Origin: a virus
Lineage: Duplodnaviria; Heunggongvirae; Uroviricota; Caudoviricetes
DNA: 64,000 bases
Direction: 5' to 3' (one strand)
Virus record (IMG/VR): IMGVR_UViG_3300050120_000279
Shown here piece after piece: positions 5,664 through 64,000 of this stretch (position 1 is the first letter of the stretch; the number at the start of each line of letters is the position of its first letter). The notes under the pieces were generated by a model, which saw only the letters and a list, made by a program, of their open reading frames with translations, searched no databases and was not told the DNA's origin. The translations under genes were made by a program, and so were the position numbers.

Positions 5664-5689
5664 GAGAAACAGACTATTTGTTCTGTACA

Positions 5690-8487: not shown

Positions 8488-8495
8488 GGAGAACT

Positions 8496-8897: not shown

Positions 8898-8903
8898 GGC
8901 ACC

Positions 8904-9551: not shown

Positions 9552-9563
9552 AAAGGCACGACG

Positions 9564-10808: not shown

Positions 10809-11308
10809 GCGCACCACGAACCATTGAGTACTTCGAAGGCAGGTTCTTCTTCCTGTCGAACTTCTTCCCCATCCTGCTTGAATACGATGGCGCGGTCTAC
10901 CCGACCAATGAGCATGCGTTTCAGGCAGCGAAGACAATCGATCCGTTGGAGCGTATTGTGTTCCAGGATCCAAAGTCCTCGCCTTCGGATGTGAAGAAGC
11001 TCGGCCGAGCCATCACCCTCCGGCATGATTGGGAACAGGTCAAGAACTCCATCATGAAGGAGCAGCTGTTGGAGAAGTTCTCCGACAGGCACCCCATCTA
11101 TCTGAAGGGATTGCTCAACACCGAGGACCGCACTCTTGTTGAGGGTAACCTCTGGCATGACAACATTTGGGGCAACTGCCATTGCATGGACAATCTCACT
11201 GTCCGCGTTCCATTCGGATCAAAGGCATTCTGTGTTAGTCCTGGACAGAACCGACTGGGTCTGGCTCTGATGGAAGTCAGAGCAGAACGTCTCGCATGCC
11301 AGTCCTAG
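10805..11308 (+). CDS. NADAR (YbiA-like) domain protein
   Basis: EYFEGRFFFLSNFFP...YPTNEHAFQAAK matches the NADAR/DUF1768 signature; ATGA overlap with cca. Confidence 0.75.
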   Translation: MSAPRTIEYFEGRFFFLSNFFPILLEYDGAVYPTNEHAFQAAKTIDPLERIVFQDPKSSPSDVKKLGRAITLRHDWEQVKNSIMKEQLLEKFSDRHPIYLKGLLNTEDRTLVEGNLWHDNIWGNCHCMDNLTVRVPFGSKAFCVSPGQNRLGLALMEVRAERLACQS

Positions 11309-49093: not shown

Positions 49094-49660
49094 ATGATTC
49101 AGTACCTCGTTTATCTATCCGGCCCAATCACGGGCCTCAATTACCAAGGTTCTACTGACTGGCGTGAGTACGTCACTCGTTCCTTTCCGCCGCACATTCA
49201 AGGGGTTTCCCCGATGCGTGGCAAGCGTTACTTGAACGATGGTAAGGTCATCGAGAACGGACGCTTCACGTTCCCTCTTTCGACTGACAGCGCCATCAAC
49301 TCCCGGGATCGATTCGACACCCTCAGGTCAACGGCCATCCTGGTCAACCTGCTCGGCGCCACCATGGGATCCCTCGGGACTGCCATGGAGATCGCCTGGG
49401 CACACGACCATGGCATTCCGATCATCGCTGCGATGGAGCCTGAGGGAAATCCTCACGACCATCCGATGATTCGGAGCTGCATCAATGTGCTCGTGACGAG
49501 TTTGGATGAAGCCATCGAGGCAGTTGTCTCCCTGGTCAGTCCCTCTGAGTCCCTGGCATGGACCAAGATTGAGCAGAACCAGATGCTGAGGGAAGAAGGT
49601 CGCTTCGATCTCAGAGCTGAGCCCCTCAAAGAAGTGAGCCATGCCACTCGCGCTAACTGA
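49094..49660 (+). CDS. nucleoside 2-deoxyribosyltransferase family protein (classical Nuc_deoxyrib_tr type)
   Basis: VYLSGPITG motif near the N-terminus, conserved MEIAWAHDHGIPIIA region. Confidence 0.6.
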   Translation: MIQYLVYLSGPITGLNYQGSTDWREYVTRSFPPHIQGVSPMRGKRYLNDGKVIENGRFTFPLSTDSAINSRDRFDTLRSTAILVNLLGATMGSLGTAMEIAWAHDHGIPIIAAMEPEGNPHDHPMIRSCINVLVTSLDEAIEAVVSLVSPSESLAWTKIEQNQMLREEGRFDLRAEPLKEVSHATRAN

Positions 49661-50342
49661 GGCAGTCCTGCATAGGCGCAGCCTGTGCAGCATGTATCAG
49701 AGCAATGTGGAAGATCACCTGACAGGGCCGGCGGAGCGTACCTTCCGCTGGGCCTTGAAGGAGCGATTCATCGGGAAGCTCCATAAGCCGGCGGATCTAC
49801 GGGAACATTTCGTGAGCGGCTGGTCCAAAGCCTGGAATCTTCCTGAAAAGGATGCCCGGTACTGGGAAGGCCCTAACAAGTCCCGAGCATTCGGCCGGCA
49901 TGTCTACGAGTTCCTGCTCAAGTATGAGATCGTCCAGCCCTACGAGCCCTATTCCTTGGAGCTGCCGGCCGGTACGGTCACTGGCGAGAACGCTATCGCC
50001 ATCTGGAAGTCACGACACAAGGGAGAGATTCCTCAGGTTGTGAGCATGCGGATCCGGCGCCCTCGAGATCTGCGCGTTCCGTTTTACCCGGCACTTGCCC
50101 AGTGGGTGGCCTCCCGGGAGGCCGCGGAGACCGTAGACCTGGGTCTTCTGACGGTTCCTGTTCTCGGCGATCGCTATGCGTCTACAGGGTTGAACGAAGC
50201 TTTGGCTCGCACCTGGCTGAATGCCATTGTGAAAGAAGCTGCAGACAACACGCTGTTTCCTCGTTATGGAACGCAGTGTGTGACCTGCTCTCACCCCTGT
50301 AAGGAGGTTCTTCGTGGACCGGATGACGATAGTTGGAACTGA
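49641..50342 (+). CDS. hypothetical protein
   Basis: 233 aa ORF. Confidence 0.4.
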   Translation: MPLALTEAVLHRRSLCSMYQSNVEDHLTGPAERTFRWALKERFIGKLHKPADLREHFVSGWSKAWNLPEKDARYWEGPNKSRAFGRHVYEFLLKYEIVQPYEPYSLELPAGTVTGENAIAIWKSRHKGEIPQVVSMRIRRPRDLRVPFYPALAQWVASREAAETVDLGLLTVPVLGDRYASTGLNEALARTWLNAIVKEAADNTLFPRYGTQCVTCSHPCKEVLRGPDDDSWN

Positions 50343-50545
50343 TGGGAAAGATAAGTACATCACCGAAGGGGTAGACGTTCAAGATGTTATGCCCGAAGGG
50401 GAGATCGAACATGATTCCTGTCTGCCGGGACACCATGAATTCCTCAATGTAACGGATGAAGATTACTCAGCTTGCACATTGTGTGGCTGGACTTTACAAG
50501 CACTACGAACCAAAGGAGAACGAGTTGTCCACTAACCAAGCACCC

Positions 50546-51118
50546 ATGGGTCGCGCGACCAACCTGCATGAACGCATTCACCAGACCGTGACCAAGGCCA
50601 ATGCGCCGATGAGCTGCGGAGCCTGCGGCGGTACACATTTCAACCTCGTTCGTGCTGAAGAGTTTACCGACAACGGTTATAACTCTGCCACCTTCCGCTC
50701 GATCTCCACCAATACCGATCCGGCGTATGTCTGCCTCTGTGGCCAGCCTTACCCTATGAAGGATTCGGCAGTCGGCAAGGGCTCAAGTGAGGGCAGCCGT
50801 GCGCGCTACCTCAAGTCGCTCAGCCTGGCCATCGACTATCGCAAGAAGCAGGGTCTCTCGGCCATTGCCGATGGTACTGTGTCGATCGCGGAGCACCAGC
50901 AGGTGGTTGAGCAGGTCAATGGCCTGATCGAGACAGTCGCCTGGCTGGAGGAGACTGTGAACCTGCTGGCTCACCCTGAGGAAGCGGCAGAGACCGAAGA
51001 GGGAACCGCTGAAGGCAAACCGGCCGTCGAAGCAACTCCCGAAACTCCCGCCAAAGCCGCCCCGGTCCCTGTTCAGAAGACCGGTGCCAAGCAAGCCAGC
51101 CGGCAGGGTCGAAACTAA
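50546..51118 (+). CDS. hypothetical protein with Ala/Pro/Glu-rich C-terminus
   Basis: Internal ATG of ORF 50456..51118; CGACGG..CLCG zinc-like cluster. Confidence 0.35.
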   Translation: MGRATNLHERIHQTVTKANAPMSCGACGGTHFNLVRAEEFTDNGYNSATFRSISTNTDPAYVCLCGQPYPMKDSAVGKGSSEGSRARYLKSLSLAIDYRKKQGLSAIADGTVSIAEHQQVVEQVNGLIETVAWLEETVNLLAHPEEAAETEEGTAEGKPAVEATPETPAKAAPVPVQKTGAKQASRQGRN

Positions 51119-51120
51119 AC

Positions 51121-51612
51121 ATGGCAACTCAGACGTTTAGAGATCCAGTTCGCAACCTGAACCCTGAGGTCCTCGGCAACCTGGAGTTGGTAGACACTCG
51201 CGTCTACCCGCTCCAAGGTGGCACGGGCCGCCGCTGGACGAACGAGATTGATCCTCGTCACGTCCACCTCATCAAGACTGGGACTACACCCGTCGGCGAT
51301 GATGTCACTTTCTATGAGCACATTGCTTCCATCAGGGACAAGCGCAGCCAGACATTCTATGTTGCGTTCCGTGAGACAGCTGATGCCCAGTATGCGCGCG
51401 AGAAGGACCTGAAGAAGTTTCCCAAGTGGGTTATGGATCTGGATCAGAAACAGGCTGAACGCCTGGTTCACATCTACATGGTAATGAAACACCCGAGCCA
51501 GGTGGCAGTCATGCGCAGCCACGAGGATTGGCTTGCTCCTATCGGCGACCCTGCGGTCTTCGATGCGTGCTGGCACTTCCTCGCTAAGCACAACGTTGTC
51601 AAAATGGCCTAA
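51121..51612 (+). CDS. hypothetical protein
   Basis: 163 aa, TAAACATG coupling. Confidence 0.4.
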   Translation: MATQTFRDPVRNLNPEVLGNLELVDTRVYPLQGGTGRRWTNEIDPRHVHLIKTGTTPVGDDVTFYEHIASIRDKRSQTFYVAFRETADAQYAREKDLKKFPKWVMDLDQKQAERLVHIYMVMKHPSQVAVMRSHEDWLAPIGDPAVFDACWHFLAKHNVVKMA

Positions 51613-51621
51613 GGAGATGAT

Positions 51622-52005
51622 GTGGTCTTTGTTGATCAGAATGGACCGCTGAGTCTTGGGGCTCACGAGCTACTGCAGAAGATAATGGGCTCGATCATGT
51701 CACAGATCGGGCCCAACATTATTGTGGTGAACTTCACGCCGAAGTGGATTCTTGGAGGTGCCGCCTGGGTAGGCCGTTTCGACTACATCGTAGGTACGTC
51801 TTATGGGGCCGTCCAGTCAGTAATGATCGAAGGTGATCTGAACTATGACTCTCTCATCATTCAGCGTATTGCTGCACAGCCTGCTCAGTTGTCACACCCC
51901 TCCAATCGTCGCCTATCAGCCGAAGAGAATGCTGCCATCTGGCGTTCGAGTCGCTCCCTCTTGCAGATCGAACTAGACGGCCCTGGCCTGGAACGGATTG
52001 GATAA
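51622..52005 (+). CDS. hypothetical protein
   Basis: 127 aa ORF. Confidence 0.35.
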   Translation: MVFVDQNGPLSLGAHELLQKIMGSIMSQIGPNIIVVNFTPKWILGGAAWVGRFDYIVGTSYGAVQSVMIEGDLNYDSLIIQRIAAQPAQLSHPSNRRLSAEENAAIWRSSRSLLQIELDGPGLERIG

Positions 52006-52529
52006 TGTCTGAGGCAGTATTCACGCAAAATGAACTGACAATGATGATGGATATTACTGTCCTCCAGGTCAAGCTGAAACAGGCCACGGAAGATATGGTC
52101 ATGACTAAAAACGAGCTATGGAAGCTAAACGAAAAGCTGTCTGAGCTTGGCCTTGCATTCGCTGCAATCAAACCCATCATGGGGTTTGCTGTAGGAACAC
52201 TGAGTGAATCTGGAGAGCCTATCACTGTCGTGAATGACGGAGTTTTCCTCACTGGAACTGATGCTCCGCCGCCGACATTTGCAATGGGTCAACAGCCCTA
52301 CACCCAGGGCGATTTGATTCTCGATCTCGGTAACGGCACCAAGGGTAAACTCACTGACTTCGATCCCATTACGGGCGTTGGAACAATCACAATTGTGATG
52401 GACAATCCGGTGGAATACATATCGGTTGGCCTCACAGTTGATGGAGTACCGATACCCACGGGCGCCGATGTTGCAATGATCGATGAGCTCATGTCGCAAC
52501 CCGATAATTTGATGGCGAGGGACTTCTAA
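52005..52529 (+). CDS. hypothetical protein
   Basis: 174 aa, TAATG overlap. Confidence 0.4.
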   Translation: MSEAVFTQNELTMMMDITVLQVKLKQATEDMVMTKNELWKLNEKLSELGLAFAAIKPIMGFAVGTLSESGEPITVVNDGVFLTGTDAPPPTFAMGQQPYTQGDLILDLGNGTKGKLTDFDPITGVGTITIVMDNPVEYISVGLTVDGVPIPTGADVAMIDELMSQPDNLMARDF

Positions 52530-53503
52530 TGGCAGCTCTGCTCTTCGTCAACAAGATCGAAGTCGATACGATCACGGATGCAGAGATGCGTTCGGCGAAC
52601 ACTCCATGGGCGATGGCAACCGGAACCAACATGCGACTGTGGATTCAGGTAGCCAATAATCCTGCCTTCTATCAGGTTCCTCCAGATGCTGACCTGGTAG
52701 GAGACCCGGCCACCGGTGGGCTAGTCGAGATCACTATCCTGCTTGATATCGATAAGGCTTCCAAGTATGTACAGGAAGGTCTTCTTCCTTTGTCCGTCAT
52801 GCGAGCCTGGGGTATGGATCCAACGGATTCTTTCTCCTATAAGGAACCAAAGAAAGCTCTGACCGAAGAAGAGATTGATGCACTCTCTATTGAGTCGACC
52901 TATGGCTTCGGCATTCTTACTGAAGCTCAGTCGATCGAGGTAGCCAAGAACATCAAGATCCCACAAGGATTTGAGTTGCCTCTGAGTGGTGTCGCCTGGG
53001 AAGCAAAGAAGCGCGTCCTGGAAGTAAAGAAGTTTACCAACCAGATCATCAGTTCCATTTCTAAGGAACAGCTTCAGATTGGATTCAATACAGCAAAGTC
53101 TGCCTCTGAAGGCATCACGATGACGGTTATTGGTCTGCCTCTGCGTGCAAACCCGATGCAGACTCTACAGGAGCTCTACTTGGAAACGCCTTCAGGTGGT
53201 CAGATCACCCTTCAAATGCTCATGGATGCGTATACGGCTGCTACGGTAAAGCCCGACCAGGCCGTTGCCCCTTACATCGATGAGATGACTGGGCTTGAAG
53301 TCGGCAAGATGGTCAAAGGCCCCAAGATGGGCGCATCGACCAAACCTGGCCCTGTTGCCCAGGCCGGGATAGACCTGGCTGCAGTTGATATGGCTAAACG
53401 TCTGAAGAACTTTGCTGATGAAGAAGCTGGTCGACAGGCAGCAGCTTTGGCTCAGGCACTTATGGATGTCAGGCTGGATCCATTCGCAGCACGAGAGGTC
53501 TAA
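52529..53503 (+). CDS. hypothetical protein
   Basis: 324 aa, TAATG overlap. Confidence 0.4.
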   Translation: MAALLFVNKIEVDTITDAEMRSANTPWAMATGTNMRLWIQVANNPAFYQVPPDADLVGDPATGGLVEITILLDIDKASKYVQEGLLPLSVMRAWGMDPTDSFSYKEPKKALTEEEIDALSIESTYGFGILTEAQSIEVAKNIKIPQGFELPLSGVAWEAKKRVLEVKKFTNQIISSISKEQLQIGFNTAKSASEGITMTVIGLPLRANPMQTLQELYLETPSGGQITLQMLMDAYTAATVKPDQAVAPYIDEMTGLEVGKMVKGPKMGASTKPGPVAQAGIDLAAVDMAKRLKNFADEEAGRQAAALAQALMDVRLDPFAAREV

Positions 53504-53703
53504 TGAACATTCAAGATGGCAAGAAGAAGCGTATGCCTGGCTCGCCGATCCTGGCGCCGAAGGGTAATGTCAAGGGCATTGGTCCCATGGGCATTTACAC
53601 TGGTGGCCTCGATCCCACCGTGGTCAAGCCTACACCTGGCATCGGTCCTCGGCGTATGGCGCCTGTGATCCTGCGCGGCGCGCCGGGCGGGCGGCTCAAG
53701 TAA
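53503..53703 (+). CDS. small Gly/Pro-rich protein
   Basis: 66 aa, TAATG overlap. Confidence 0.3.
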   Translation: MNIQDGKKKRMPGSPILAPKGNVKGIGPMGIYTGGLDPTVVKPTPGIGPRRMAPVILRGAPGGRLK

Positions 53704-54140
53704 TGGCGCAAGATCCCACCTGGTACGTCCCCGTTTGCGATCGCCTCTTGCAGAAGATTCAGCACTGGTACCAGGTCTATGACCGCGGTGTTGAGTCTGC
53801 TTCGCGCAAGTGGATCACCATGAACGCCCGGATCGTTGATCGGGTAACCATGTACGCCCACAACCTGAAGTTCAAGACTCAGGAGATCGATCATTTGGTC
53901 CGGCTTCTTGATGCACTGTCACCCCACCCGGAGCTGACCGCTGATTTCAAACTGGTTCGAGCTGCTATGCAGCGCGGCCGGCTCTACCCCGGTGGCGAGT
54001 ACGAGGTCACACTCAACTTCTACAAGCAGGATGTCGTGGACATTCTCAACGTGCTCATTCGCGCCAAGACCGGTCAACTCAAGACCGTTGAACAGCTTGC
54101 GAAGGAACAGGCAGCATCTGGAAAGGGCATGTTCGAATAA
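53703..54140 (+). CDS. hypothetical protein
   Basis: 145 aa, TAATG overlap. Confidence 0.4.
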   Translation: MAQDPTWYVPVCDRLLQKIQHWYQVYDRGVESASRKWITMNARIVDRVTMYAHNLKFKTQEIDHLVRLLDALSPHPELTADFKLVRAAMQRGRLYPGGEYEVTLNFYKQDVVDILNVLIRAKTGQLKTVEQLAKEQAASGKGMFE

Positions 54141-54709
54141 TGGCAAAGACAGCCAAGAAGAAGGCAGCATTCCTGGGAGTCGAGGCCGATCTTGTGGTCG
54201 GTCTCGACCTCAGCCTGGAGTCCCCAGGCTGGGCCCTCTGGAACAAGTTGACTGGTCTGTATGACAGTGGGTTCATCGACGTCAAGAAGCTGAAGATCGA
54301 TGGTATGCCACGGCTCCGGTTGATCCGGACCTACCTCATCGAGATCCTGGCCAAGGTGAACAAGCCCGACGATAAGATCGTGGTGTTCATTGAGGGCTAT
54401 GCCTTCGCTGCCAAGGGCAGGGGAGTCATCTCCCTGGGCGAACTCGGAGGAGTCATTCGTCTGCACATCACGGACAATGGTGGCAAGTTCTTCGAGATCC
54501 CTCCGTCGAGCCTGAAGAAGTTCATCATGGGCAAGGGCACTGGCGACAAGGCGGTCATGCTCAAGGATCTCTACAAGCGCTACGGCCATGACATCAACCA
54601 GAATGACGAGGGTGATGCGGTCTGTCTAGTCGAGCTGGGCCGAGCTTGTCTAGGCATTCCATCTAAGCCTTTGGTTCAGTTCCAGCAAGAGGTATTGTCA
54701 GCACTATGA
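54140..54709 (+). CDS. RuvC-like Holliday junction resolvase
   Basis: VVGLDLSLESPGWAL (first catalytic Asp), FIEGYAF (Glu), NDEGDAVCL (Asp pair) in RuvC order. Confidence 0.6.
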   Translation: MAKTAKKKAAFLGVEADLVVGLDLSLESPGWALWNKLTGLYDSGFIDVKKLKIDGMPRLRLIRTYLIEILAKVNKPDDKIVVFIEGYAFAAKGRGVISLGELGGVIRLHITDNGGKFFEIPPSSLKKFIMGKGTGDKAVMLKDLYKRYGHDINQNDEGDAVCLVELGRACLGIPSKPLVQFQQEVLSAL

Positions 54710-54900
54710 GTACACCAGTCGTCGAAGCAGAAGTCGAACGCATCTCTCATCTGCCGATGACCGTTGAAGTCATCAAGGCTCTTATCTCTGCTGACCCAGA
54801 AGTCAAGAAAGCTATGGCCTACAAGCTGGCCCTGGCTATCCCTCAACTTGAGGACTATCTGGGAACCTTGAAAGCAGCGTTCCAGATCGCTAACTCCTAA
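54706..54900 (+). CDS. hypothetical protein
   Basis: 64 aa ORF. Confidence 0.3.
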   Translation: MSTPVVEAEVERISHLPMTVEVIKALISADPEVKKAMAYKLALAIPQLEDYLGTLKAAFQIANS

Positions 54901-54917
54901 CCTTTCCGATCAACAAG

Positions 54918-56090
54918 ATGCAGCCGCCGTGTGGGGACACGAGGCCATCCCAGTTGCTCCGAAACTACTACCTATCGTCGTCCCATTACGCTTCAAAGTG
55001 GAAAGTGCGCGAAGTATCTGATCGCCACGACCGCGAGCTCATCAATGAGAAGGCCTACGAGTTCGCTACGACGAAGAACCCTGTGCTGCGTGAAGCTCTG
55101 CAGCTGGAAGTCCTCGAAGCATTCCACGCCTATCTCATCAAGTACTTCAACCTGATCGTCTTCGGCGATGTGCCGGCGCTCACCGGGCCGCAAGGCAAGG
55201 ATGCCCAGGCATTCCTGAAGCTGCTCATGCCCAAGGGAACGAAGAAGCCCACGCTTGCTGACCTTCAGAAGTCAGCGAAGCATCTGCACTTGGCCTTCAA
55301 GAACTGCATCACCTCGGATGAAGTCTACGACACCCTGGTTGCTGTGTTCCTGGACGTCGCTGCGCACTACGATCCGCACTACACGAAGAAGACGGAGGAG
55401 GTCTGCAATTTCATTGAGAAGCAACCGTCAGACGCCGTCATCAAGATCGATGAGTTCGGATCAGCTGTGGATTTCGATCCTCTTGGTTGCATCCGCGTTC
55501 TCGTCCGTCATAACTATCTTCAGTCCGTTTCGGGAGCGCGTAAAAAGGTTCTCGGTTATCAACGGGGGGAGAATTGGCCGCCCGCAAAGTCCTTCTTCGA
55601 AGCGGGACCGGTGGGTTTTACATACTTCCTCACGAAGTGGTTCCGTTATTACCTCCAGGCACACATTCAGACCCAGATGGGGCAGATTGAGTCGAAGGAG
55701 CACGTTATGCAGCTTGATCACATCGAGTCCAGTAACGTCGATGATGACGGGTGGAACATTGGCGGGCTCCCTCACGCGGATGGCAACTGGGTCGACCAGC
55801 GGGGTGTGCGTTGGGCGGCTGATCTATCGATGCTTGAGCATTGGAAGACGCTTGACGTCTCGCTGATCAATGATGCCTGGGTCAAGTCGACTGATGACCA
55901 CCTATTCAAGACCCTCACCCGTGAGGAGCGCTACCTGCTCCAGCTCGTATTCGTGAAGGAGCTCAACTGGACAGAGATTGCTGTCATCTTCGATAAGCGA
56001 TCGGAAACTGTCCGGGCCAAATTCGACGAGGTCATGGAATTCCTCGTTGTCCGCGGCAAGGAACGCCCCTGGCTAGCGACTGCCGCCTAA
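54918..56090 (+). CDS. sigma-70-family-like transcription factor (candidate phage sigma factor)
   Basis: C-terminal LTREERYLLQLVFVKELNWTEIAVIFDKRSETVRAKFDEVMEFL resembles sigma region 4 HTH. Confidence 0.45.
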   Translation: MQPPCGDTRPSQLLRNYYLSSSHYASKWKVREVSDRHDRELINEKAYEFATTKNPVLREALQLEVLEAFHAYLIKYFNLIVFGDVPALTGPQGKDAQAFLKLLMPKGTKKPTLADLQKSAKHLHLAFKNCITSDEVYDTLVAVFLDVAAHYDPHYTKKTEEVCNFIEKQPSDAVIKIDEFGSAVDFDPLGCIRVLVRHNYLQSVSGARKKVLGYQRGENWPPAKSFFEAGPVGFTYFLTKWFRYYLQAHIQTQMGQIESKEHVMQLDHIESSNVDDDGWNIGGLPHADGNWVDQRGVRWAADLSMLEHWKTLDVSLINDAWVKSTDDHLFKTLTREERYLLQLVFVKELNWTEIAVIFDKRSETVRAKFDEVMEFLVVRGKERPWLATAA

Positions 56091-56114
56091 ATCACCTACT
56101 GTGCAAGTAACAAA

Positions 56115-56141
56115 GCCCTGGGCCTCGTATAGGTCCGGGGC
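56115..56141 (+). terminator. hairpin terminator GCCCTGGGCCT-CGTAT-AGGTCCGGGGC followed by TTCGTCTGTATT
   Basis: 11-bp stem (two GU) 25 nt after the stop at 56090; marks the end of the plus-strand phage block. Confidence 0.4.
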
Positions 56142-56377
56142 TTCGTCTGTATTGAGAGCCGACTGCTCTGCTCTGAGTATCCCCTCTCTGTCTATTTCTC
56201 TTTCTTTCTCCCTATCTCCCTGATCTCAACTAGACAGTTTAGTTCTCTATACAGTTCACTATCCTTTCTCAGGACGTCCGGTCTTCAACGGAAAAGACTG
56301 AACATCAATGGATGAGTTTATAAACTTGCACTTGCCTTTGGTAAACAGGTGTGGCACTATACAGACCGAGGTGATCT

Positions 56378-56818
56378 GTGAGTCCACTAACAGGAATGAG
56401 AGCCGCTCTCCAGGAAGAGCTAAAGGGAATCGATAACACTTTGGAGCATATGGCCGCCAAGAGAACAGCGATCCTGAACCTGCTTGAGCTGTACGGCGTG
56501 CAAGATGAGAAGGTCCGAGCGACTGGAGCAAAGGCGACAGCGGCGCGGATCAAAAGTGTAGGGCCGGGTTCTCTGGATATGGCGCGCGTCGTCATTCGCA
56601 ACGCCGGCCGGCCGCTTAAGACGCTCGGTATTCGGGAGGCCATCGTAAAAACGTATGGCGTGGAACCCGCGAAGACACTAGAGAATATGCTCTGGAGGCA
56701 CTGCCGTAAAGAGGGTGGCCTGTTCTTCAAAGAAGAAGACGGAAGTATCGGAGTACGAGAAATGCAAGCTAAAGTGGTGACTGTAAGGGGTTTAGGTAAC
56801 CAGTCACAAGTTGCATAG
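56378..56818 (+). CDS. hypothetical protein
   Basis: 146 aa ORF (GTG; alternative ATG at 56396) preceded by a TTGCCT-n17-CACTAT promoter-like sequence. Confidence 0.35.
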   Translation: MSPLTGMRAALQEELKGIDNTLEHMAAKRTAILNLLELYGVQDEKVRATGAKATAARIKSVGPGSLDMARVVIRNAGRPLKTLGIREAIVKTYGVEPAKTLENMLWRHCRKEGGLFFKEEDGSIGVREMQAKVVTVRGLGNQSQVA

Positions 56819-57055
56819 TACCCAAAAGCGAAGATTATACGAACACGATACAAAGCGATCCACAGGGTAGAAATTACTCACCTGTGGGTCGTTTGTTCTT
56901 TGATCTATTTGTTTGCAATGACTTACCGATTTAGTCTAAGGGAAATACTTTCCCAATCTGTGTAATCACCCACTTGCATTTGGGTGGTTACTAAGCGTAG
57001 TGTTCGATGAGTAACACCCAAGGACAGCTTTTACCCCGAGAAAAGACCCCCGCAC

Positions 57056-57700
57056 ATGTATGCAATTCTGGCCGACGACGAACTGATGCTCCGTGAACTA
57101 CTCTCTGCTTCTCTAACGCATGCCTTCAAATTCGACATGCTCACGACCAATAATGCCGGCGACGCTGTCGAGCTGACCCGTAAGTACAATCCCGTTCTCG
57201 TGATCATGGACATGATGATGTCAGGCATGGGAACCTTCGATGCGATCGCCGAGATTCGACGCATGGCGCCGTACACCAAGGTCATGATTCTGAGTGGCCG
57301 AGCAGATGTTGACCTGTTGATTCGATCCCGGGCAGTCAAAGCGCACGGGTACTGCCTGAAGGGGGATCTGCCCGACGAGATCCACTACGCTGTCAAGACG
57401 GTGATGCGCGGTGGCATCTATATGCCGCCCTCGCTCTCCACCCACCTCCTCGATCCAGCCAGGGAAGGGCGCTCCGCTATTGACGCGCTCACTCCGAAAG
57501 AGCGATCGGCGCTAGGGCTTCTGGCCCAGGGCAAGACGATGAAGGAAGTGGCCTTCGTCATGCGGATCTCGGTCAAGACGGCTGAAACTCACCGAAACAA
57601 TCTGGGCCGCAAGCTCAATCACCCCACCAAGGCGCAGCTCATCTCGTTCGCAATCCAACACAAGCTGATCAGCCATTCCGATCTGGCAATCAGCGCCTGA
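57056..57700 (+). CDS. response regulator, REC domain plus LuxR/NarL-type HTH
   Basis: Receiver residues DD (LADDE), D (VIMDMM), S (ILSG), K (CLKGD); C-terminal LTPKERSALGLLAQGKTMKEVAFVMRISVKTAETHRNNLGRKL. Confidence 0.8.
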   Translation: MYAILADDELMLRELLSASLTHAFKFDMLTTNNAGDAVELTRKYNPVLVIMDMMMSGMGTFDAIAEIRRMAPYTKVMILSGRADVDLLIRSRAVKAHGYCLKGDLPDEIHYAVKTVMRGGIYMPPSLSTHLLDPAREGRSAIDALTPKERSALGLLAQGKTMKEVAFVMRISVKTAETHRNNLGRKLNHPTKAQLISFAIQHKLISHSDLAISA

Positions 57701-57741
57701 TATAGTTTCATCTGCTCCACTTTCCCAGGTCTACCAGTACC

Positions 57742-57778
57742 GTCATGCGGAGATTACCTCCCCTAATCTCCGCATGAC
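57742..57778. promoter_or_regulatory. perfect 14-bp inverted repeat GTCATGCGGAGATT-n9-AATCTCCGCATGAC
   Basis: Read directly; lies between the response regulator stop and the recombinase-like fragment. Confidence 0.45.
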
Positions 57779-57793
57779 CAACAAGGAGTAAGC

Positions 57794-57985
57794 ATGGCAC
57801 CCAAGGAAGAATGGACACCGGAATCCGTTGCTCGAATTCTCATGAACCCACGCTACTGCTTGAGCAATCCACCGGTCGTTCCCGAGGACGTCTGGATCAA
57901 GGCCAATGCCCGCACCATCGAGGACATCGGGGCAGAGGCATATCTCACCAGGCTCCTCAGCATTCTCAGGCCTGACTATACATAA
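57794..57985 (+). pseudogene. short ORF resembling the recombinase domain of large serine recombinases (possible remnant)
   Basis: WTPESVARILMNPRYC resembles the W..S.V..IL.NP.Y.G motif of the serine-recombinase Recombinase domain; only 63 aa. Confidence 0.25.
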
Positions 57986-58197
57986 TCACCGTTATCAGAC
58001 GTTCAGTAAGTCGCATATCATGAATGAGTTAGTCTCAAAGTCTTATGTGATACGTCAAGTTTATCTGCAAGAAAACGTGACCTATTCTTCTTGCTGAGCT
58101 TAAGAAGAAACCTCCTACTTTATCTTAAGAGGATGGGCTCCTGCGCCGCCGGCGGGATTGAGAAATACTACCTCACTTTATCTAAATGTAATGGGTC

Positions 58198-58235
58198 ATA
58201 TCCTGCACACAAGTAGCTGATATTGTGCAGGATAT
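58198..58235. repeat. 12-bp perfect inverted repeat ATATCCTGCACA-n14-TGTGCAGGATAT within a 500-bp AT-rich non-coding region
   Basis: Read directly; region 57986..58480 has no convincing ORF. Confidence 0.45.
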
Positions 58236-58367
58236 TTCTCGTTACTACCGGTCCTGCAAGGATGGCATTACACTGGGACCAGGCGTACACAACTGCTGCT
58301 GAGATCCGGGGGTTGCAAGTGGGCTCGCAGACGGAGTTCCAACCGAGGTTGCCCTGAAAAGCAACAA

Positions 58368-58389
58368 GGCCCTGGGTAGCACCAGGGCC
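58368..58389 (-). terminator. hairpin GGCCCTGG-n6-CCAGGGCC; on the minus strand it is followed by TTGTTGCTTTTCAG (terminator for the RHH gene transcript)
   Basis: 8-bp GC stem, U-rich tract on minus-strand reading. Confidence 0.4.
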
Positions 58390-58576
58390 TCTATCTCAGT
58401 TGTGTAGGAGTAGAAAGAATGCTGAAGCTAAGCAGTAGCATTCGTGTCCACCTTGTGATCCAGACTCGTCTGCGCTGGATTGCCGCCTTGGTTTACTGGT
58501 TCCTTCACCAGTAGGCCAGCTGCAACCCACCTGGCTGTTAGCAGCAGCCGGGTGGTTCTTCTACAGAATACGCCCC

Positions 58577-58900
58577 CTACTCCTCCAGATCAACTTCTTT
58601 CGCGGCCGCTGTCAGCTCCGGCGGAGACAGAAGGACCGGCAGCACCCGGGCCAGCGCTTCGTTCGCGATCGATGCCATCGTCACTCCATGTTTCTTGGCA
58701 GCCTTCTTGAGCTGGCGATGCAGGCTCACGGGCAGCCGCATGGGCCAGGAGACGAGGATGGGCCTCTTCCGGGTGATTTCCCTGTCCCGGATCTGCAAGG
58801 TCGCCAGGAGCTCCACAGCGAAGCTGGCGTTCACCTGGTCCGAATCGGTCGACGTGAGTTTGAAGTTAGCGCTTTCCATGCCATGCAGCATACCAGACAT
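58577..58900 (-). CDS. ribbon-helix-helix (CopG/Arc/ParG-like) DNA-binding protein
   Basis: C-terminal RLPVSLHRQLKKAAKKHGVTMASIANEALARVL has the beta-strand plus two-helix RHH layout. Confidence 0.5.
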   Translation of the reverse strand: MSGMLHGMESANFKLTSTDSDQVNASFAVELLATLQIRDREITRKRPILVSWPMRLPVSLHRQLKKAAKKHGVTMASIANEALARVLPVLLSPPELTAAAKEVDLEE

Positions 58901-58910
58901 TTGGCTAAAG

Positions 58911-59017
58911 TTATAGCGGAGAGTTATAGCGCCAAGGCTCCATTATAGGACGTTCTGGTTTCGAAACGCACGTCCTTCCTATGAGAGGGACCTGGCGCTA
59001 TAACGCGCAGCTATAAC
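58911..59017. promoter_or_regulatory. symmetric operator array: two direct TTATAGCG boxes (58911, 58924), a central imperfect palindrome ATAGGACGT...ACGTCCT..CTAT, and two inverted CGCTATAA/GCTATAAC boxes (58996, 59010)
   Basis: Read directly; positioned immediately upstream of the minus-strand RHH gene start at 58900. Confidence 0.45.
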
Positions 59018-59167
59018 TTTGTGTGTGGTAACTGCCCTGTTATCAACATTCAGGGCGCAGCCGATACTAGTCTCTCGATAAAGACAATACGAGAAGAACT
59101 AAAAGCAAAGACAACTACTAGAGGTCGTGTAAGCAACCTGAATGCAACAGGTTAGAAGCTTTTTGGC

Positions 59168-59270
59168 TTGCCAGTATGCGTGCAAGGGTTTGCCAGTATG
59201 CGTGGACCGGCTTGCTGGTATGCGTGCCAATCGCAAATCACCAATGAATTGAGGCTTGCTGGTATGCGTG
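59168..59270. repeat. iteron array: four copies of 15-bp TTGC[CT][AG]GTATGCGTG at 59168, 59190, 59212, 59256 (22-bp phasing)
   Basis: Read directly; directly downstream of (minus-strand) repA, typical plasmid oriV iteron arrangement. Confidence 0.6.
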
Positions 59271-59274
59271 GAGC

Positions 59275-60207
59275 TCAGGCCTCAAGACGAAACTCACGAG
59301 GCTTGGAGAGCACGGAGGGTCGCGTCAGTCGAAACTCGACGCTCTTCCCTACTTCTGTGAACTCCACAGCGGGGTATGCCTTCTGGACCTGGCGGAGAGC
59401 CTGGAGGAAATTGGTCCGGAAGTTCTTCATGAGGCCGACGTCCGGGCCGAACTGCAGCTTCAGTCCGATCCAAGTGATCCGGAGAATGCTCCGACCTTCC
59501 TTCTTCAGAATGAAAGCTTTGTATGTCAGCCAGACATAGATATCAACCGGAAGGCATGCCGGCCACAGAGACGCGATCGCGCGCAGATCGATCGGCACGG
59601 AGTGCTTCAGCAAGTCGTTGTAGAAGACCTCACCTAAAGTGATGGTTGAAGGTACGAGCAGAGTGTCAGTTGGGGTCGAGAACCGGGTTGGCCAAAGCAC
59701 GGCGCCGGAGGTGGCGATCTCAACCGATTGGAAGTTCATCACTTCCCCGCTCGGCACCTTATCGTTTGTCCAGTAGAGAATCCTGCTACCCAGAAGGCTG
59801 AACAAGGAGCGCTTGAACGGGGCGATGTTGCCCTTCTTGCCGCCGGAGTAGCTCTTGGCGCCGGAGATCTTCTGCATGAATTCGAACATGGAGCTACCCA
59901 GCGTGAGGGTACGGGATGCGTCCGGACTATTCTTCTTTCGTTGGACCTCGGCCGCGATCCAGGCAAGAATCCCACGAGGGTAAATACCATAGGGGACTCC
60001 GAGCATCGACGGGGTCTGAATGCTGAGATGGAATGGACCGCTATGCCGAACGTACTCATTCCCTTTGAATTGGTCGCGGGGCAGCGCGATCTGACACATG
60101 ATCTGGGGATAAAAGCCCATCGCCTTGGCAGCCAGGGTCTCTTCGTCCTCGATCTCCTTCAACGCCAGAGCCTGGCGGATGAGCCGTTGTTCTACATCCT
60201 TCCGCAT
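59275..60207 (-). CDS. plasmid replication initiator RepA-like protein (candidate, RPA-type)
   Basis: 310 aa ORF flanked by the iteron array and followed by partition genes; no catalytic motif identified by eye. Confidence 0.5.
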   Translation of the reverse strand: MRKDVEQRLIRQALALKEIEDEETLAAKAMGFYPQIMCQIALPRDQFKGNEYVRHSGPFHLSIQTPSMLGVPYGIYPRGILAWIAAEVQRKKNSPDASRTLTLGSSMFEFMQKISGAKSYSGGKKGNIAPFKRSLFSLLGSRILYWTNDKVPSGEVMNFQSVEIATSGAVLWPTRFSTPTDTLLVPSTITLGEVFYNDLLKHSVPIDLRAIASLWPACLPVDIYVWLTYKAFILKKEGRSILRITWIGLKLQFGPDVGLMKNFRTNFLQALRQVQKAYPAVEFTEVGKSVEFRLTRPSVLSKPREFRLEA

Positions 60208-60254
60208 CGTGACACTTTACCATGCAAGCGGTTGAGGCATACCATAAGTGAGTC

Positions 60255-60860
60255 ATGCCACCGCCTCGTACTTGGCTTCCGCGCATCGACGAGATTCTGA
60301 GTACCCTACGGGCCTCCACAGTCGAATTCTATGACCGCACGGGAGTTGAACGTCTATTTGAGGTTCAGAGACGTACCGCTATCCTGCTCATGAACGCAGC
60401 CGGCCCTCAGAAAACAGGGACCGGGTCAATGGTCCTGACTTCTAAGCTCATTATCTTCGTCGAAGATATCCAGGCTAACCATAGCCAAGATGTATCGCGT
60501 CGCGAGATAACTCTCAAGCATTTGGATGTCGCTTCGACTCACTGGAAGGGCGTGCGGGCTCAGGTCACCGACGCTTCCCTGCCCTCAACCTTTCCCGTTA
60601 CCGATGAGATCCGCAGCACGGTCTTCAGTGGATTGTCGAAGGACATCGAAATCAGAAGAGGTCGCATCACGATCCGCTTCGAACCAGACGATCCGCTAGA
60701 TGCCTGTACCAAGCTCTATGCGTTGAGTATGGCTTTGACGAATGACTTTGGTGGCTTCATCCATGCGCTCAAAGAAAAGGCAGCCTCCAAAGAGGCCACC
60801 ATAAACAATCTCCTCGAATCTCTGGAGAGTCAACGCAGTACACACTTACCTGAGGATTAG
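60255..60860 (+). CDS. hypothetical protein divergently transcribed from repA
   Basis: 201 aa ORF 48 bp from the repA start. Confidence 0.4.
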   Translation: MPPPRTWLPRIDEILSTLRASTVEFYDRTGVERLFEVQRRTAILLMNAAGPQKTGTGSMVLTSKLIIFVEDIQANHSQDVSRREITLKHLDVASTHWKGVRAQVTDASLPSTFPVTDEIRSTVFSGLSKDIEIRRGRITIRFEPDDPLDACTKLYALSMALTNDFGGFIHALKEKAASKEATINNLLESLESQRSTHLPED

Positions 60861-61255
60861 CGTACTCCGAAGTAGTGAACCAGGGCATCCTCGATAACCG
60901 CATCGCGAGTGATCTTCTTGTAACCTTTTGACTTCATCTCATAAACCTTGTCATTGATGAGCTTGTTGAGAGTCTGACGAATCGATTGTGAGATTCGTTC
61001 TTTCGGTTCATCTGGTGAGAATCTATTCTGCGCCAGAGCTTCGACGCTTGTGCCGTCATGCTCGACCTGGGTGTAAAGAACGGTGGTCTCTTCATGGACT
61101 GCCAGTTCAGTTGGGACCGGCGGGGACGAGCGCTGCACTTCCCTGCCCTGCGCAACCAGTTCAGGAGCTGGTCTGGTGACCATAGGTTCCTTGGGGATCA
61201 CGATCTCATCTTCCTCGACCGCGCCTAAGCTGAAACGGGAGTTGCCTTTAGACAT
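60857..61255 (-). CDS. ParG-like centromere-binding protein (C-terminal RHH) partner of ParA
   Basis: Immediately downstream of parA; C-terminal KITRDAVIEDALVHYFG RHH-like segment; N-terminal part disordered (alternative start at 61183). Confidence 0.4.
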   Translation of the reverse strand: MSKGNSRFSLGAVEEDEIVIPKEPMVTRPAPELVAQGREVQRSSPPVPTELAVHEETTVLYTQVEHDGTSVEALAQNRFSPDEPKERISQSIRQTLNKLINDKVYEMKSKGYKKITRDAVIEDALVHYFGVR

Positions 61256-61905
61256 TCCACTACCTCCTTGGTGAGTTTCTTGTAGAGACGAGCGGCCGCT
61301 GACTTGGGGGCATACTCGAAGATGCTCTGCCCTGTTCCACCGAACTCGGCGATCGCCGCGGCGTCAGGGATCTCAGTGGTCAGGATCGATGTGTTGTGGT
61401 GGCTACTGAACAGACGCAGTAGGTTGGCACGTGCATCTTTATCTATCGATCGGGAGACATGCTTGGCATTGACGAACAGGAGAAATCTGGTCGATGCATG
61501 CCGGCTCTGTACTCCCTTCACGAATTTGGCCAGGGCCTTAGTTGCCTCGAAGTCAAATGCGGTTGCACGCACCGGACACAGAACAGCATCACTCGACTCG
61601 ACTGCGGTCTGTGTAATGTCGAGAATGTTGCCTGGGCAGTCGACCAGGACGACGTCTAGCGAGGAGTTGGCCCGCTGACGCTGTAGCTCGTCTTCCAACA
61701 TGCCTTGGGGGATGGATGTGACACTGAATGCAGGGAGGTCTGTCTTGTCGCGGATCAGGCTCCACTTACGGAAGGTGGCCTGTGGGTCGGTGTCGATGAC
61801 TGCCACCTTGTACCCAGACCCAAGCAGGGCCGCCGCCACGTTGATGGCTGTGGTGGTTTTCCCCGGTCCGCCCTTCTGGTTAGCTACGCTTATGATTGTG
61901 GCCAT
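61225..61905 (-). CDS. parA: ParA partition ATPase
   Basis: Deviant Walker A VANQKGGPGKTTTAIN, IDTDPQ, VVLVDCPG motifs. Confidence 0.85.
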   Translation of the reverse strand: MATIISVANQKGGPGKTTTAINVAAALLGSGYKVAVIDTDPQATFRKWSLIRDKTDLPAFSVTSIPQGMLEDELQRQRANSSLDVVLVDCPGNILDITQTAVESSDAVLCPVRATAFDFEATKALAKFVKGVQSRHASTRFLLFVNAKHVSRSIDKDARANLLRLFSSHHNTSILTTEIPDAAAIAEFGGTGQSIFEYAPKSAAARLYKKLTKEVVECLKATPVSA

Positions 61906-61970
61906 ACACAGGACTATATCCAGCCTCGGAGCTGCTGGGGAGTGCAAGGGAAGGTACACGGTCGTACTCA

Positions 61971-62061
61971 TGTGTCCAGACACACAGACACACGGACGCA
62001 TAGACACATGGATATCTGCGCGCTCCCTCTCCTACCCAAGGCGTTGGGTGTGGAGAGGGGC
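61971..62061. repeat. candidate parC-like centromere/operator region: palindrome TGTGTC-CA-GACACA, three direct AGACACA repeats (61978, 61986, 62002) and nested palindrome CCCTCTCC-ACCCAA-GGCG-TTGGGT-GGAGAGGG
   Basis: Read directly; upstream of the minus-strand parA start. Confidence 0.35.
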
Positions 62062-62455
62062 CAGCAGTGAAGCGCCGGGGAGCGCTACCTCACGAGGAAC
62101 AGTCCGTGTCGGTTGATGTTGGGCCGCGAGCGCAGCATCCGGTCAATCAACACACGACGGTAGCTCAACCTGTTGAAGTCTGAGTTGATACGTGCAAGCT
62201 CCGCCTGCAACATAGTGACGACGGAAGCTGTACTCGATATCTCTTTCATGAATCCAAGGTAAAAGGGAATTCGTAACCGCAGTATCAACAAACCTGAGGA
62301 GCTAGGACCAGAGAATCCCTTAGTGTGCTAATGTAAGGCTGTGCAGTAACCGTGCAACTTCCCCTACAGCGCTGCGTCCTACCCTAGTTGTTTATAAGTC
62401 CTTACAGGACAATGATTTACTGCATTTCCTATTCTGCTTTATTCGAGACCACTCA

Positions 62456-63085
62456 ATGGCCTATTTAGCTAGCACTCAACGTATTGTCGTGGCCGCAGCG
62501 GCACTCTTCGCAAAGAAGGGTTTCCGCGATACCGCGACGCGCGAGATCGCCAAGTATGCTGGAGTTAATCAGACGACCATCTTCCGACAGTTCAAAGGAA
62601 AGCACGAATTGAGTCTGGCAGCTATCGACCACCTGGCGACGGAAGCAAACTTTCACGCCCGGCTGGAGAAGGCGATCAATCAGTGCCGGCCAGAGAGTCC
62701 GGCTTCGGCTATGGCCATTGTCGAATTCTTCATAGATATTTATCAGAAGAACAACGACTTCGTAATGATCGTATGGAACGCCATCGTCGAGCGACAAGAT
62801 CCCTCTGCTGACAAAGATCTTCGTGGAGACGTTCGAATGAAGTACACGATCCCACTTCGACAGTTTCTTCAGAAGTTCTGTCAATCCAGTACAGATGCCG
62901 GTTACCTTGTGGGTGATCCTGACCTGAATTCAGAAGTACTTTACGGTCTCGTCATTTATATGCTGCAGAACAATCTTGTTCGACAATACAATTCCGATGG
63001 ACCAACGAGAATGGGCCAGGGAATAAAGACCCTGGCCCAGCAGATTGTGTATCAGTGGTTGAATGGTTGTGGAGTTCGGTCTTAG
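62456..63085 (+). CDS. TetR-family transcriptional regulator
   Basis: N-terminal HTH AAALFAKKGFRDTATREIAKYAGVNQTTIFRQFKGKHEL. Confidence 0.8.
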   Translation: MAYLASTQRIVVAAAALFAKKGFRDTATREIAKYAGVNQTTIFRQFKGKHELSLAAIDHLATEANFHARLEKAINQCRPESPASAMAIVEFFIDIYQKNNDFVMIVWNAIVERQDPSADKDLRGDVRMKYTIPLRQFLQKFCQSSTDAGYLVGDPDLNSEVLYGLVIYMLQNNLVRQYNSDGPTRMGQGIKTLAQQIVYQWLNGCGVRS

Positions 63086-63372
63086 GAACCTGAAGGTGGA
63101 ATGACGGTCTGAGATACATCGGCGCCGGGAGGGCTAAAGCCGAGGTACGTGGAAAGCGCTGTCCACAGACTCGTTACCGAAGCGGTGACTTTTGCCAGGA
63201 GACCTTCCAGGGTCAACACACTTTGCGTGAGATCTACTTTGAGACCATTGATTCGGGCATTGGTCTGAGTGGTGAAGCCGACAGCGGGAGCGATGAGACC
63301 TTGGCCATCAAGCATAGAAACACGGACAGCGAGGTTATTGAGCTGAGTCTGGAGATCAGGAGTCTGGGACAT
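63082..63372 (-). CDS. hypothetical protein
   Basis: 96 aa ORF downstream of the Gly-rich gene on the minus strand. Confidence 0.35.
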   Translation of the reverse strand: MSQTPDLQTQLNNLAVRVSMLDGQGLIAPAVGFTTQTNARINGLKVDLTQSVLTLEGLLAKVTASVTSLWTALSTYLGFSPPGADVSQTVIPPSGS

Positions 63373-63382
63373 GGGTTCCTTC

Positions 63383-63952
63383 TTACTGGTGCATTAGTTG
63401 CGCTTCACGACCCAAATATCGGCGTGCGTTGAGCAGGGAACCGGAGAGTTCCTGCTCAGCCTTTTGACGCATGTTGTAGGCAGGGAGAGTATCGGTGTAG
63501 CCGCCGAATCGGATGGACTGACTACCTGTTGCTTTAATCTTATTGATGAGTCTGGTTGTGCCCGTTCGAGCCAATACGTCGCCCGCCATTGACCCAATAC
63601 CATCGCCTATGACACCACCAACGAAGGTGCCGACACCCGGGGCAATGAAGGTCCCGATGGTCTCGCCGACGGTTGCGCCCACAGCATACCCGCCCATGCC
63701 GACTGCTTGAGCAGCCACTGCGCTAGCGCCTGCAGTGAACATGTTTCCACGCGCCGCCATGCCGCTGGAGATGCCAACGTCTGTTAGCCCCAGAGAGAAT
63801 GTGGCCCAGTTGAGGGGGTTCTTTCCTCCACCGGCTCCGCGGCTCAGGACTTCGATCGCAGTATCGAAGAGATCAAACTTCTGGCCAGTGGTGGTATTCG
63901 CCAGAAGCCCATCGTCTTTCGGATCCTTATGTTTGTTCCGACGCCACAGCAT
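63383..63952 (-). CDS. glycine-zipper (GxxxG-repeat) membrane-active protein, bacteriocin/microcin-like candidate
   Basis: Central segment of repeated G/A-x3-G motifs (GTFIAPGVGTFVGGVIGDGIGSMAG); charged N-terminus ending in GAGGG; no signal peptide. Confidence 0.35.
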   Translation of the reverse strand: MLWRRNKHKDPKDDGLLANTTTGQKFDLFDTAIEVLSRGAGGGKNPLNWATFSLGLTDVGISSGMAARGNMFTAGASAVAAQAVGMGGYAVGATVGETIGTFIAPGVGTFVGGVIGDGIGSMAGDVLARTGTTRLINKIKATGSQSIRFGGYTDTLPAYNMRQKAEQELSGSLLNARRYLGREAQLMHQ

Positions 63953-64000
63953 GCTATTATCCTTTTGCCATGAAGAACCGAAGACAATCTATTCAGCAGG

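Follow-up and report, generated by a model that had tools for sequence, protein, structure and literature searches.

A plasmid-type replication and partition module in the genome of a large uncultured phage, a candidate phage-plasmid of Acidobacteriota

Replicon, partition genes, and regulators of the module

We analyzed a 64,000-nt stretch of phage DNA (IMG/VR record IMGVR_UViG_3300050120_000279; hereafter, the window) that carries, at 56.1-63.1 kb, an insert of approximately 7 kb resembling the replication and partition region of a plasmid. This insert, which we call the module, is located where the replication block and the tail block of the phage converge. Gene identities are based on a map of open reading frames (ORFs) and on family scans with Pfam, PHROG, and NCBIfam. 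An earlier, sequence-only reading of the window had proposed a phage-plasmid candidate: a phage replisome block on the left ending in a terminator hairpin and a pyrimidine-rich tract, followed by an orphan response regulator, a ribbon-helix-helix (RHH) regulator with an operator array, four 22-bp-phased iterons beside a RepA-like gene, an AGACACA repeat cluster, and a TetR regulator. We recovered all of these features, and the presence of a plasmid replicon and partition module and a phage replisome block on one molecule supports that proposal.

The replication initiator is a 310-amino-acid (aa) protein of the RepA_C family, encoded on the minus strand (59275-60207). Its match to PF04796 (70.8 bits against a cut-off of 26 bits, E = 2e-19) covers profile positions 1-179 of 181. 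Four iterons, the presumed oriV, abut the repA stop codon (59275) on its 3' side, with a spacing of 22/22/44 bp (59165-59274). In the orientation of repA, they read CACGCATAC(T/C)(G/A)GCAAGC. Allowing three or fewer mismatches, this motif occurs 5 times in the window compared to 0.44 expected, and the four iterons carry 0-1 mismatch. Near the iterons are an A/T-rich stretch (59060-59125, up to 70% A+T) and a DnaA-box-like site, TTATCAACA, with one mismatch (59040-59048); only 6 such sites are present in the entire 64 kb. The RHH repressor-like protein (107 aa) is encoded on the minus strand (58577-58900), transcribed away from the origin. Residues 53-96 of this protein weakly match five families (CopG, FitA, HicB, Arc, and RHH_5), and its PHROG match is Arc-like. 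Between its start codon and the origin lies the operator (58907-59020), in which four (T)TATAGCG boxes (TTATAGCG) form two direct pairs within a 44-nt inverted repeat.

We compared RepA and its iterons with plasmid and phage sequences. RepA matched 1039 records in the plasmid collection (931 near full length, annotated RepA) and one of 50,697 phage records, a 3.9-kb fragment. A search of 2.9 million IMG/VR contigs with the patterns used yielded RepA_C in 3. Among named sequences, the closest RepA (46% identity) is on a Terracidiphilus metagenome-assembled genome (MAG) contig, and we found no RepA relatives with a solved structure. The possibility that the close RepA clade is phage-specific was rejected, given that the context of P0007 is plasmid-like or chromosomal. 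The CACGCAT core of the iterons, their position, and their phasing are common to RepA_C plasmids and contigs L005-L011, L013, and L014. Immediately 3' of repA, three to four phased copies of CACGCAT in the same orientation are present in the window, in the Polaromonas plasmids pW9NP1 and pA31BJ1, in L005 and L006, in a circular Sideroxydans contig, and in a Terracidiphilus MAG contig. More distant RepA proteins are accompanied by repeats other than CACGCAT, as expected if Rep and iterons co-evolve. In SGI1, the Rep protein, which has a RepA_C domain, is necessary for replication, and oriV, directly 3' of rep, comprises four 17-bp iterons together with a DnaA box and A/T-rich regions (PMC7433901). 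The predicted origin in the window has the same anatomy as this RepA_C oriV, and the predicted replicon belongs to a bona fide plasmid type.

Divergent from repA, a plus-strand gene (60255-60860) encodes a 201-aa protein that we assign to the partition cassette. In acidobacterial plasmids, and likewise in Tunturiibacter phage Tunturi 5 (PP885688.1, 308,711 bp), a cultured jumbo myovirus of Acidobacteriota (PMC11924767), the gene directly preceding parA encodes a member of this family. The only homologues found were gp157 of Tunturi 5 and proteins on plasmids of two Acidobacteriaceae, Acidisarcina polymorpha and Granulicella tundricola; the family yielded nothing in IMG/VR and no relatives with a solved structure.

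The parA gene (61225-61905, minus strand) encodes a 226-aa partition ATPase with a deviant Walker A motif (KGGPGKTT, residues 11-18). It has no N-terminal DNA-binding domain and is thus like the small ParA proteins of type Ib partition systems (ParFG of TP228). In addition to a Pfam match, it matches a ParA-like family in PHROG (2e-45) and, over its full length, ParA_partition NF041546 in NCBIfam (2e-42). The gene probably starts at 61905, matching the assembly's gene call, instead of at 62007. The best match to ParA in the phage collection is Tunturi 5 gp158 (52.7% identity, E = 2e-69); identity to the best plasmid ParA proteins is approximately 35%. The 3' end of parA overlaps by 31 nt the gene for its 132-aa putative partner (60857-61255, minus strand). 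For this partner, we obtained no ParG, RHH, or other Pfam match even at E values up to 10, no PDB sequence match, and no Foldseek fold match to its single-sequence AlphaFold2 model; its C terminus weakly matches Tunturi 5 gp159 (pairwise E = 2e-4). In the model, the N-terminal half is disordered and is followed by two C-terminal helices, and this predicted helix-turn-helix pair would be compatible with an RHH centromere-binding protein. The sequence-only reading had named a ParA and a ParG-like protein; the first is confirmed by PHROG and NCBIfam, but the second matches neither an RHH nor a ParG profile.

Upstream of parA, 70-100 nt from its start, is an array of four heptads with an 8-bp period (AGACACA twice, GGACGCA, AGACACA; 61978-62008). 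Three of the eight exact copies of AGACACA in the window fall within these 31 bp. The array is a candidate centromere or par operator. A 68-aa ORF (62085-62291, minus strand) between the TetR gene and the par promoter is called in the assembly's gene table; it has no family match and is possibly not a gene.

At the left edge of the insert, the first gene (56378-56818, plus strand) encodes a 146-aa protein whose match to HARE-HTH is weak (Pfam E = 8e-5, under the cut-off); it is conserved in L005 and L006 according to tblastn synteny. The second (57056-57700, plus strand) encodes an orphan NarL/LuxR-type response regulator with Response_reg and GerE domains (Pfam), NarL-like in NCBIfam. Because its translation has the receiver residues (DD7-8, D52, S80, and K102), the response regulator is a candidate sensor input for the module. 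The ORF map shows no kinase gene nearby, and the protein at the equivalent position in L005 and L006 is 40% identical. A 63-aa ORF follows (57794-57985, plus strand), with a weak match to Pfam Recombinase (E = 0.0036). Because its homologue is the C terminus of Tunturi 5 gp142 (55% identity over 31 aa, E = 7e-9), the ORF is probably a genuine gene of small size. Its earlier description as a recombinase remnant is therefore right about the weak motif but probably wrong about the remnant. This ORF aside, we saw no integrase in the window. The gene for the TetR-family regulator (62456-63085, plus strand; Pfam TetR_N E = 8e-14), which is missing from L005 and L006, lies at the right edge of the insert.

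Between the 63-aa ORF and the RHH gene, we observed a 276-nt non-coding stretch (58285-58560) with terminator-like hairpins on both strands at its flanks. Its predicted fold is a closed multi-branch structure, with minimum free energy z scores of -4.3 (plus strand) and -5.2 (minus strand) compared to shuffled controls. This stretch was conserved in none of the other loci compared, and an Rfam search of 56-64 kb, 58285-58560 included, returned no match.

Phage blocks on either side of the module

The sequence-only reading had allowed for a chimeric assembly near 56.1 kb or for host chromosome beside an integrated prophage. The Logan assembly of SRR35930614, an independent contig of 88,212 bp, is 100% identical to the window over 49,275-64,000, spanning the junction, and the same layout occurs in L005 and L006, two diverged relatives from other samples. 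This contig extends 52.6 kb past the right end of the window (116.6 kb for window and contig together), and the genes it carries beyond the module are phage tail-fibre and baseplate genes instead of chromosomal flank. The join is neither an assembly chimera nor a host flank. Megablast searches of 45-64 kb against phage records and of the module against plasmid records found nothing. The phage is large, uncultured, and myovirus-like; at least 116.6 kb of its genome is known, and its relatives reach 204-215 kb.

Beyond the module, all genes on the Logan contig are oriented towards it. They encode a Vsr-like endonuclease, a beta-helix protein, a DUF2793 tail-fibre-like protein, a Gp53-like_C fibre protein, and a series of 400-900-aa proteins. 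For a 672-aa member of this series, the best match of the AlphaFold2 model (pLDDT 79) was a chain of the phi812 baseplate (E = 9e-8, probability 0.99); TM-scores were low, as expected for a multi-domain protein. Baseplate_J lies just upstream in a relative with 61% identity, and a PHROG baseplate wedge protein is encoded in one with 35% identity. Synteny with IMG/VR viral contigs of 142-215 kb extends over approximately 15 late genes. Most tail-block proteins had no match in PHROG and Pfam, and the 672-aa tail protein retrieved nothing from JGI metagenome contigs.

The terminal genes of this late (tail) block lie within the window, on the minus strand (63082-63952), and encode glycine-rich proteins of 96 and 189 aa. 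Homologues of both occupy the same place after the Vsr-like gene in L005 and L006, and homologues of the 189-aa gene are also present in IMG/VR phage contigs of 142-215 kb. The sequence-only reading had counted the 189-aa gene as a bacteriocin-like part of the plasmid backbone. We rejected this identity because the gene holds a conserved position in the phage late block of relatives; it is a member of the late module. The nearby Vsr-like/PD-(D/E)xK endonuclease (152 aa; L089 18408-18866, approximately 0.3-0.8 kb beyond the right end of the window) has the motif ELNGCYWHG and a PHROG match to 'endonuclease', with a match to Pfam MTES_1575 in a relative. Its gene is third from last in the late block of all relatives, including the 215-kb contigs, an unexpected position for a nuclease.

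To the left of the module, the plus-strand block encodes a ligase, a CCA-adding enzyme, RecD2, a clamp-like protein, ribonucleotide reductase (RNR), a PolA exonuclease, a helicase, an AAA protein, and DnaG primase, together with tRNAs and a transfer-messenger RNA (tmRNA). Its final gene (54918-56090, plus strand) encodes a 390-aa protein with weak matches to sigma-70 region 4 (E = 0.001-0.009). This gene is kept at 40-53% identity in relatives, always converging on the late block, and may encode a phage sigma-like factor. A terminator-like hairpin (56113-56143, plus strand; 13-bp stem with 8 GC pairs) closes the block after the 390-aa gene, and a pyrimidine-rich tract, read directly, lies at approximately 56170-56230.

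We made three further observations in this block. The tmRNA (5656-6033) is of the permuted, two-piece type (Rfam RF04321, 76 bits), with the tag peptide AATAMPTMGFAAAA according to ARAGORN. A tRNA with anticodon CUA (4051-4127) resembles an amber suppressor; we considered stop-codon recoding and rejected it, because TAG still terminates 11 of the 49 genes in the plus-strand block. Finally, a family-A DNA polymerase ORF (30598-31941, 447 aa) has a 3'-5' exonuclease domain, but its match to the polymerase domain falls below the cut-off and is limited to a short segment (positions 59-132 of the 381 in the profile); the polymerase gene may be split or interrupted.

Relatives of the module and direction of acquisition

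We used relatives of the flanking blocks to ask which partner acquired the other. The 215,291-bp contig UViG_3300029908_000004 from IMG/VR (L106) has homologues of both window flanks: the late block down to the glycine-rich gene and, converging on it, the 390-aa gene (40%), small genes, and the primase (38%). Only approximately 1.1 kb, with a single 300-aa ORF, separates these converging blocks, and the module is absent. Because this relative has both flanks without the module, we favor acquisition of a plasmid module by a phage backbone. Two alternatives had been offered in the sequence-only reading, a phage that persists as a plasmid and a plasmid that captured a phage replisome; the evidence favors a phage that took up a plasmid module, and we rejected the second alternative on the evidence of L106. 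The mixed-strand plasmid backbone described after 56.1 kb was likewise correctly recognized as plasmid-type, but it is an internal insert rather than a backbone joined end to end with the phage block.

In L005 and L006, an insert of approximately 11 kb occupies the same place between flanking phage genes that are 53-66% identical to those of the window. This insert includes the 146-aa homologue, the response regulator (40%), RepA (45%) with iterons, the 201-aa protein (42%), and ParA (29%), which is inverted. In tetranucleotide usage, the correlation of the insert with the backbone in the window is 0.875, within the range for chunks of the backbone itself (0.85-0.95) and above that for plasmid controls (0.07-0.66). 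The parts of the module, their family membership, their continuity with phage genes, and their conservation are demonstrated.

A module collinear with that of the window is present in Tunturi 5, with a homologue of the 63-aa ORF (gp142), RHH gp154, iterons, rep, gp157, ParA, and an overlapping partner of approximately 131 aa. The RHH proteins are homologous (E = 3e-8), and gp154 has boxes (GTATAGCGC) upstream, in the same position as the TATAGCG operator of the window. Five iterons (CATACGCAGAAGTGCACC) lie directly 3' of gp155, which is annotated 'replication helicase' and matches the C-terminal part of the RepA profile (hhalign probability 93%, E = 3e-7). The gp155-iteron-RHH region (L123 6113-7373) looks like an unannotated plasmid-type origin. 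However, gp155 is only distantly RepA_C-like, the iteron sequence differs, and the parA-partner pair is inverted in the window. The backbones are also unrelated: tblastn with the backbone proteins of 819 and 390 aa matched nothing in Tunturi 5. Neither the response regulator nor TetR had a detected homologue within the 18.7 kb surrounding the module of Tunturi 5, the only part examined for these two.

The cassette genes also resemble those of Acidobacteriaceae plasmids (Granulicella tundricola pACIX901 and Acidisarcina polymorpha pACPOL1-3), although identity is low (27-29%) and these are true plasmids without phage genes. The order in pACIX901 is a 201-aa family protein, ParA, an overlapping 126-aa protein, and a replication initiator. 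This initiator is from another family ('replication initiator protein A', 520 aa), and the parA-partner pair of the window is in the opposite orientation, with respect to the 201-aa gene, to that of pACIX901. In the 235-bp spacer of pACIX901 between the 201-aa family gene and parA (L126 5080-5313), we observed dense CTACA/TAGCA-type repeats in both orientations; by analogy of position with the AGACACA array of the window, this spacer is likely a centromere.

The host is most likely a member of Acidobacteriota (Terriglobia), given the 201-aa family in Acidobacteriaceae plasmids, the RepA of Terracidiphilus, a tail-protein homologue from a Candidatus Acidiferrales MAG, and the ParA of Tunturi 5. 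Judged from these homologies, the module is common to unrelated large phages and plasmids of one phylum.

Two other contigs carry related replicons. L004 (JGI Ga0642625_00125, 157,183 bp; positions 1-20939) has an operon of ParA, a 101-aa protein, and a RepA_C initiator that is 49% identical to RepA of the window, flanked by two tRNA arrays with 23 tRNA genes in total. We found no CACGCAT iterons after its repA and no other homologues of window genes; kinship of the gene upstream of its ParA with the 201-aa family was considered and rejected, as the two are unrelated. L004 is probably another large phage with a related replicon. L003 (IMGVR_UViG_3300038457_000126, 30,485 bp; positions 6861-11097) has a RepA_C protein with 34% identity and four CACGCAT-type iterons. 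A serine recombinase/invertase (PHROG integrase, 1e-66) is encoded 1.8 kb upstream of its repA, and the contig has one virion-like match only. This contig may represent another phage-plasmid, or else a plasmid wrongly classed as viral.

Predicted life cycle, competing explanations, and known systems

On balance, we think it probable that the module and the phage together represent a phage-plasmid lineage of Acidobacteriota that keeps its genome as a low-copy plasmid prophage. Origin firing, lysogeny, and switch control are the parts of this proposal that we infer. After infection, the genome would be kept as a low-copy plasmid prophage. RepA would bind the four phased iterons 3' of its own gene in a theta-type replicon, with the A/T-rich stretch beside the iterons serving as the unwinding site and the DnaA-box-like site adjoining it. 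With the help of DnaA and the replisome of the host, replication from RepA and the iterons would be initiated once in each cell cycle. ParA, with its partners, would segregate the copies, and the repeat array upstream of parA would be the likely centromere or operator. The RHH repressor, whose four-box operator abuts the origin, may form a control region together with the response regulator, TetR, and HTH protein. The phage's own block of polymerase, primase, clamp, ligase, and RNR would then serve lytic replication.

Several points weigh against this proposal. No repressor/antirepressor switch, lysogen, or circular molecule is demonstrated, and no capsid, portal, terminase, or lysis gene was reached in the part read, which excludes approximately 33 kb of the Logan contig and the DNA left of the window. 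Both the ParA partner and the centromere are candidates, the partner having no profile or fold match, and the DnaA-like box is an imperfect one (one mismatch). Compared to L005 and L006, RepA and ParA have diverged more (45% and 29% identity) than the flanking genes (53-66%). Together with the inversion of ParA, this divergence may reflect independent captures at a hotspot.

An alternative with a real but lesser chance is that RepA and the iterons are the phage's own origin for productive infection, comparable to lambda O and ori-lambda, with ParA positioning lytic genomes and no plasmid prophage being formed. Iteron initiators are not unusual among phages. Another point for this alternative, and a further one against a prophage state, is that Tunturi 5, with its homologous and collinear module, was reported to show lytic infection cycles in laboratory culture (PMC11924767). 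On the other hand, plaque formation is compatible with a plasmid prophage, as P1 also makes plaques. Transcription of the module is separate from that of the replisome operon block of approximately 56 kb and in part runs in the opposite direction. The 215-kb relative L106 has the same backbone without the module at this site; because it is absent there, the module is not an essential backbone function in that relative. Furthermore, the module is most closely related to genes of plasmids, among them a partition cassette that is native to plasmids of acidobacteria.

It is considerably less likely that the insert is a small acidobacterial plasmid or hitchhiker integrated in the phage, selfish or decaying cargo with no role in the life cycle. 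In size and content, the 7-kb insert is similar to plasmids of 7-10 kb composed of RepA, iterons, ParA, and small proteins. It contains the 63-aa ORF with a recombinase-like motif, a serine recombinase lies 1.8 kb from repA in the related RepA_C contig L003, and the insertion site varies among relatives. However, no ORF is disrupted, and no part of the iteron array is missing. The module is retained with the same flanks in phages of 53-66% backbone identity, its composition has been ameliorated to that of the phage, and a homologous module persists in an unrelated cultured phage of 309 kb, Tunturi 5. That the join is an artefact, a concern that arose from the change of strand and a dip in composition at 56-58 kb (GC skew -0.038), is extremely improbable, as we found no evidence supporting it and the independent assembly is identical over 49,275-64,000, the same junction recurs in two other samples, and phage late genes follow beyond it.

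More tentatively than the phage-plasmid reading of this lineage, we consider it possible that a plasmid-type island (rep, iterons, RHH gene with its operator, 201-aa gene, ParA gene, and partner) circulates among unrelated large and jumbo phages of Acidobacteriota and host plasmids. The carriers would include cultured Tunturi 5, in which the annotation of the island is limited to a 'replication helicase' and a ParA-like protein. In that case, jumbo phages that infect slow-growing soil bacteria would regularly be maintained as low-copy plasmid prophages or as episomes in a carrier state, and in the lineage of the window the orphan response regulator could couple the decision to host kinase signaling. 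Large and jumbo phages have mostly been treated as virulent, and a recent jumbo-phage review contains neither 'temperate' nor 'lysogen'. Acidobacteriota are abundant in soil, and very little is known of their phages and plasmids. Because cultured Tunturi 5 and its Tunturiibacter host carry a homologous module, the plasmid reading can be tested by assays of replication, stability, and lysogeny. The module could also seed genetic tools for Acidobacteriota, such as shuttle vectors.

The best-known counterpart is P1, which has a RepA/iteron plasmid replicon with ParA/ParB and a separate lytic replicon. The window shares with P1 an iteron initiator and ParA-type partition on a tailed-phage genome, with the plasmid replicon apart from the lytic machinery. 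It differs in that there is no sequence kinship, the initiator being of the RepA_C family (PF04796), and in that this phage encodes a full replisome, RNR, tRNAs, and a tmRNA; its lifestyle is deduced from its genes. Among RepA_C replicons, the Polaromonas plasmids pW9NP1 and pA31BJ1 share with the window the Pfam family, the CACGCAT core, and a ParA gene and small partner adjoining the replicon. As in these plasmids and SGI1, the iterons of the window are directly 3' of rep with 22/33-bp phasing. In contrast, RepA identity to these replicons is only 33-35%, the replicon of the window is inside a phage, and its partition cassette is of the acidobacterial three-gene type; the ParA partners of the Polaromonas plasmids match RHH_10 and ParG, whereas the 132-aa partner matches neither.

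In phage-plasmids, the plasmid genes are variable and the phage backbone is conserved (PMC7969092), and the lineage of the window is alike. The 2021 survey reported a median phage-plasmid size of approximately 68 kb, compared to 204-215 kb for the relatives of the window, and gave Firmicutes, Actinobacteria, and Proteobacteria as hosts, with Acidobacteria unmentioned (PMC7969092). A precedent for a large phage maintained as a plasmid is pBtic235 of Bacillus thuringiensis, a circular jumbo prophage-plasmid of approximately 235 kb; its host belongs to Firmicutes, and its backbone is unrelated (PMC9700832). Because phage-plasmids are known and a jumbo example, pBtic235, exists, the lineage adds to the established phage-plasmid class rather than founding a class of its own. 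Its novelty lies in the way it combines a RepA_C replicon in a phage, a large or jumbo backbone that encodes its own replisome, a probable Acidobacteriota host, and a module previously unrecognized in a cultured phage.

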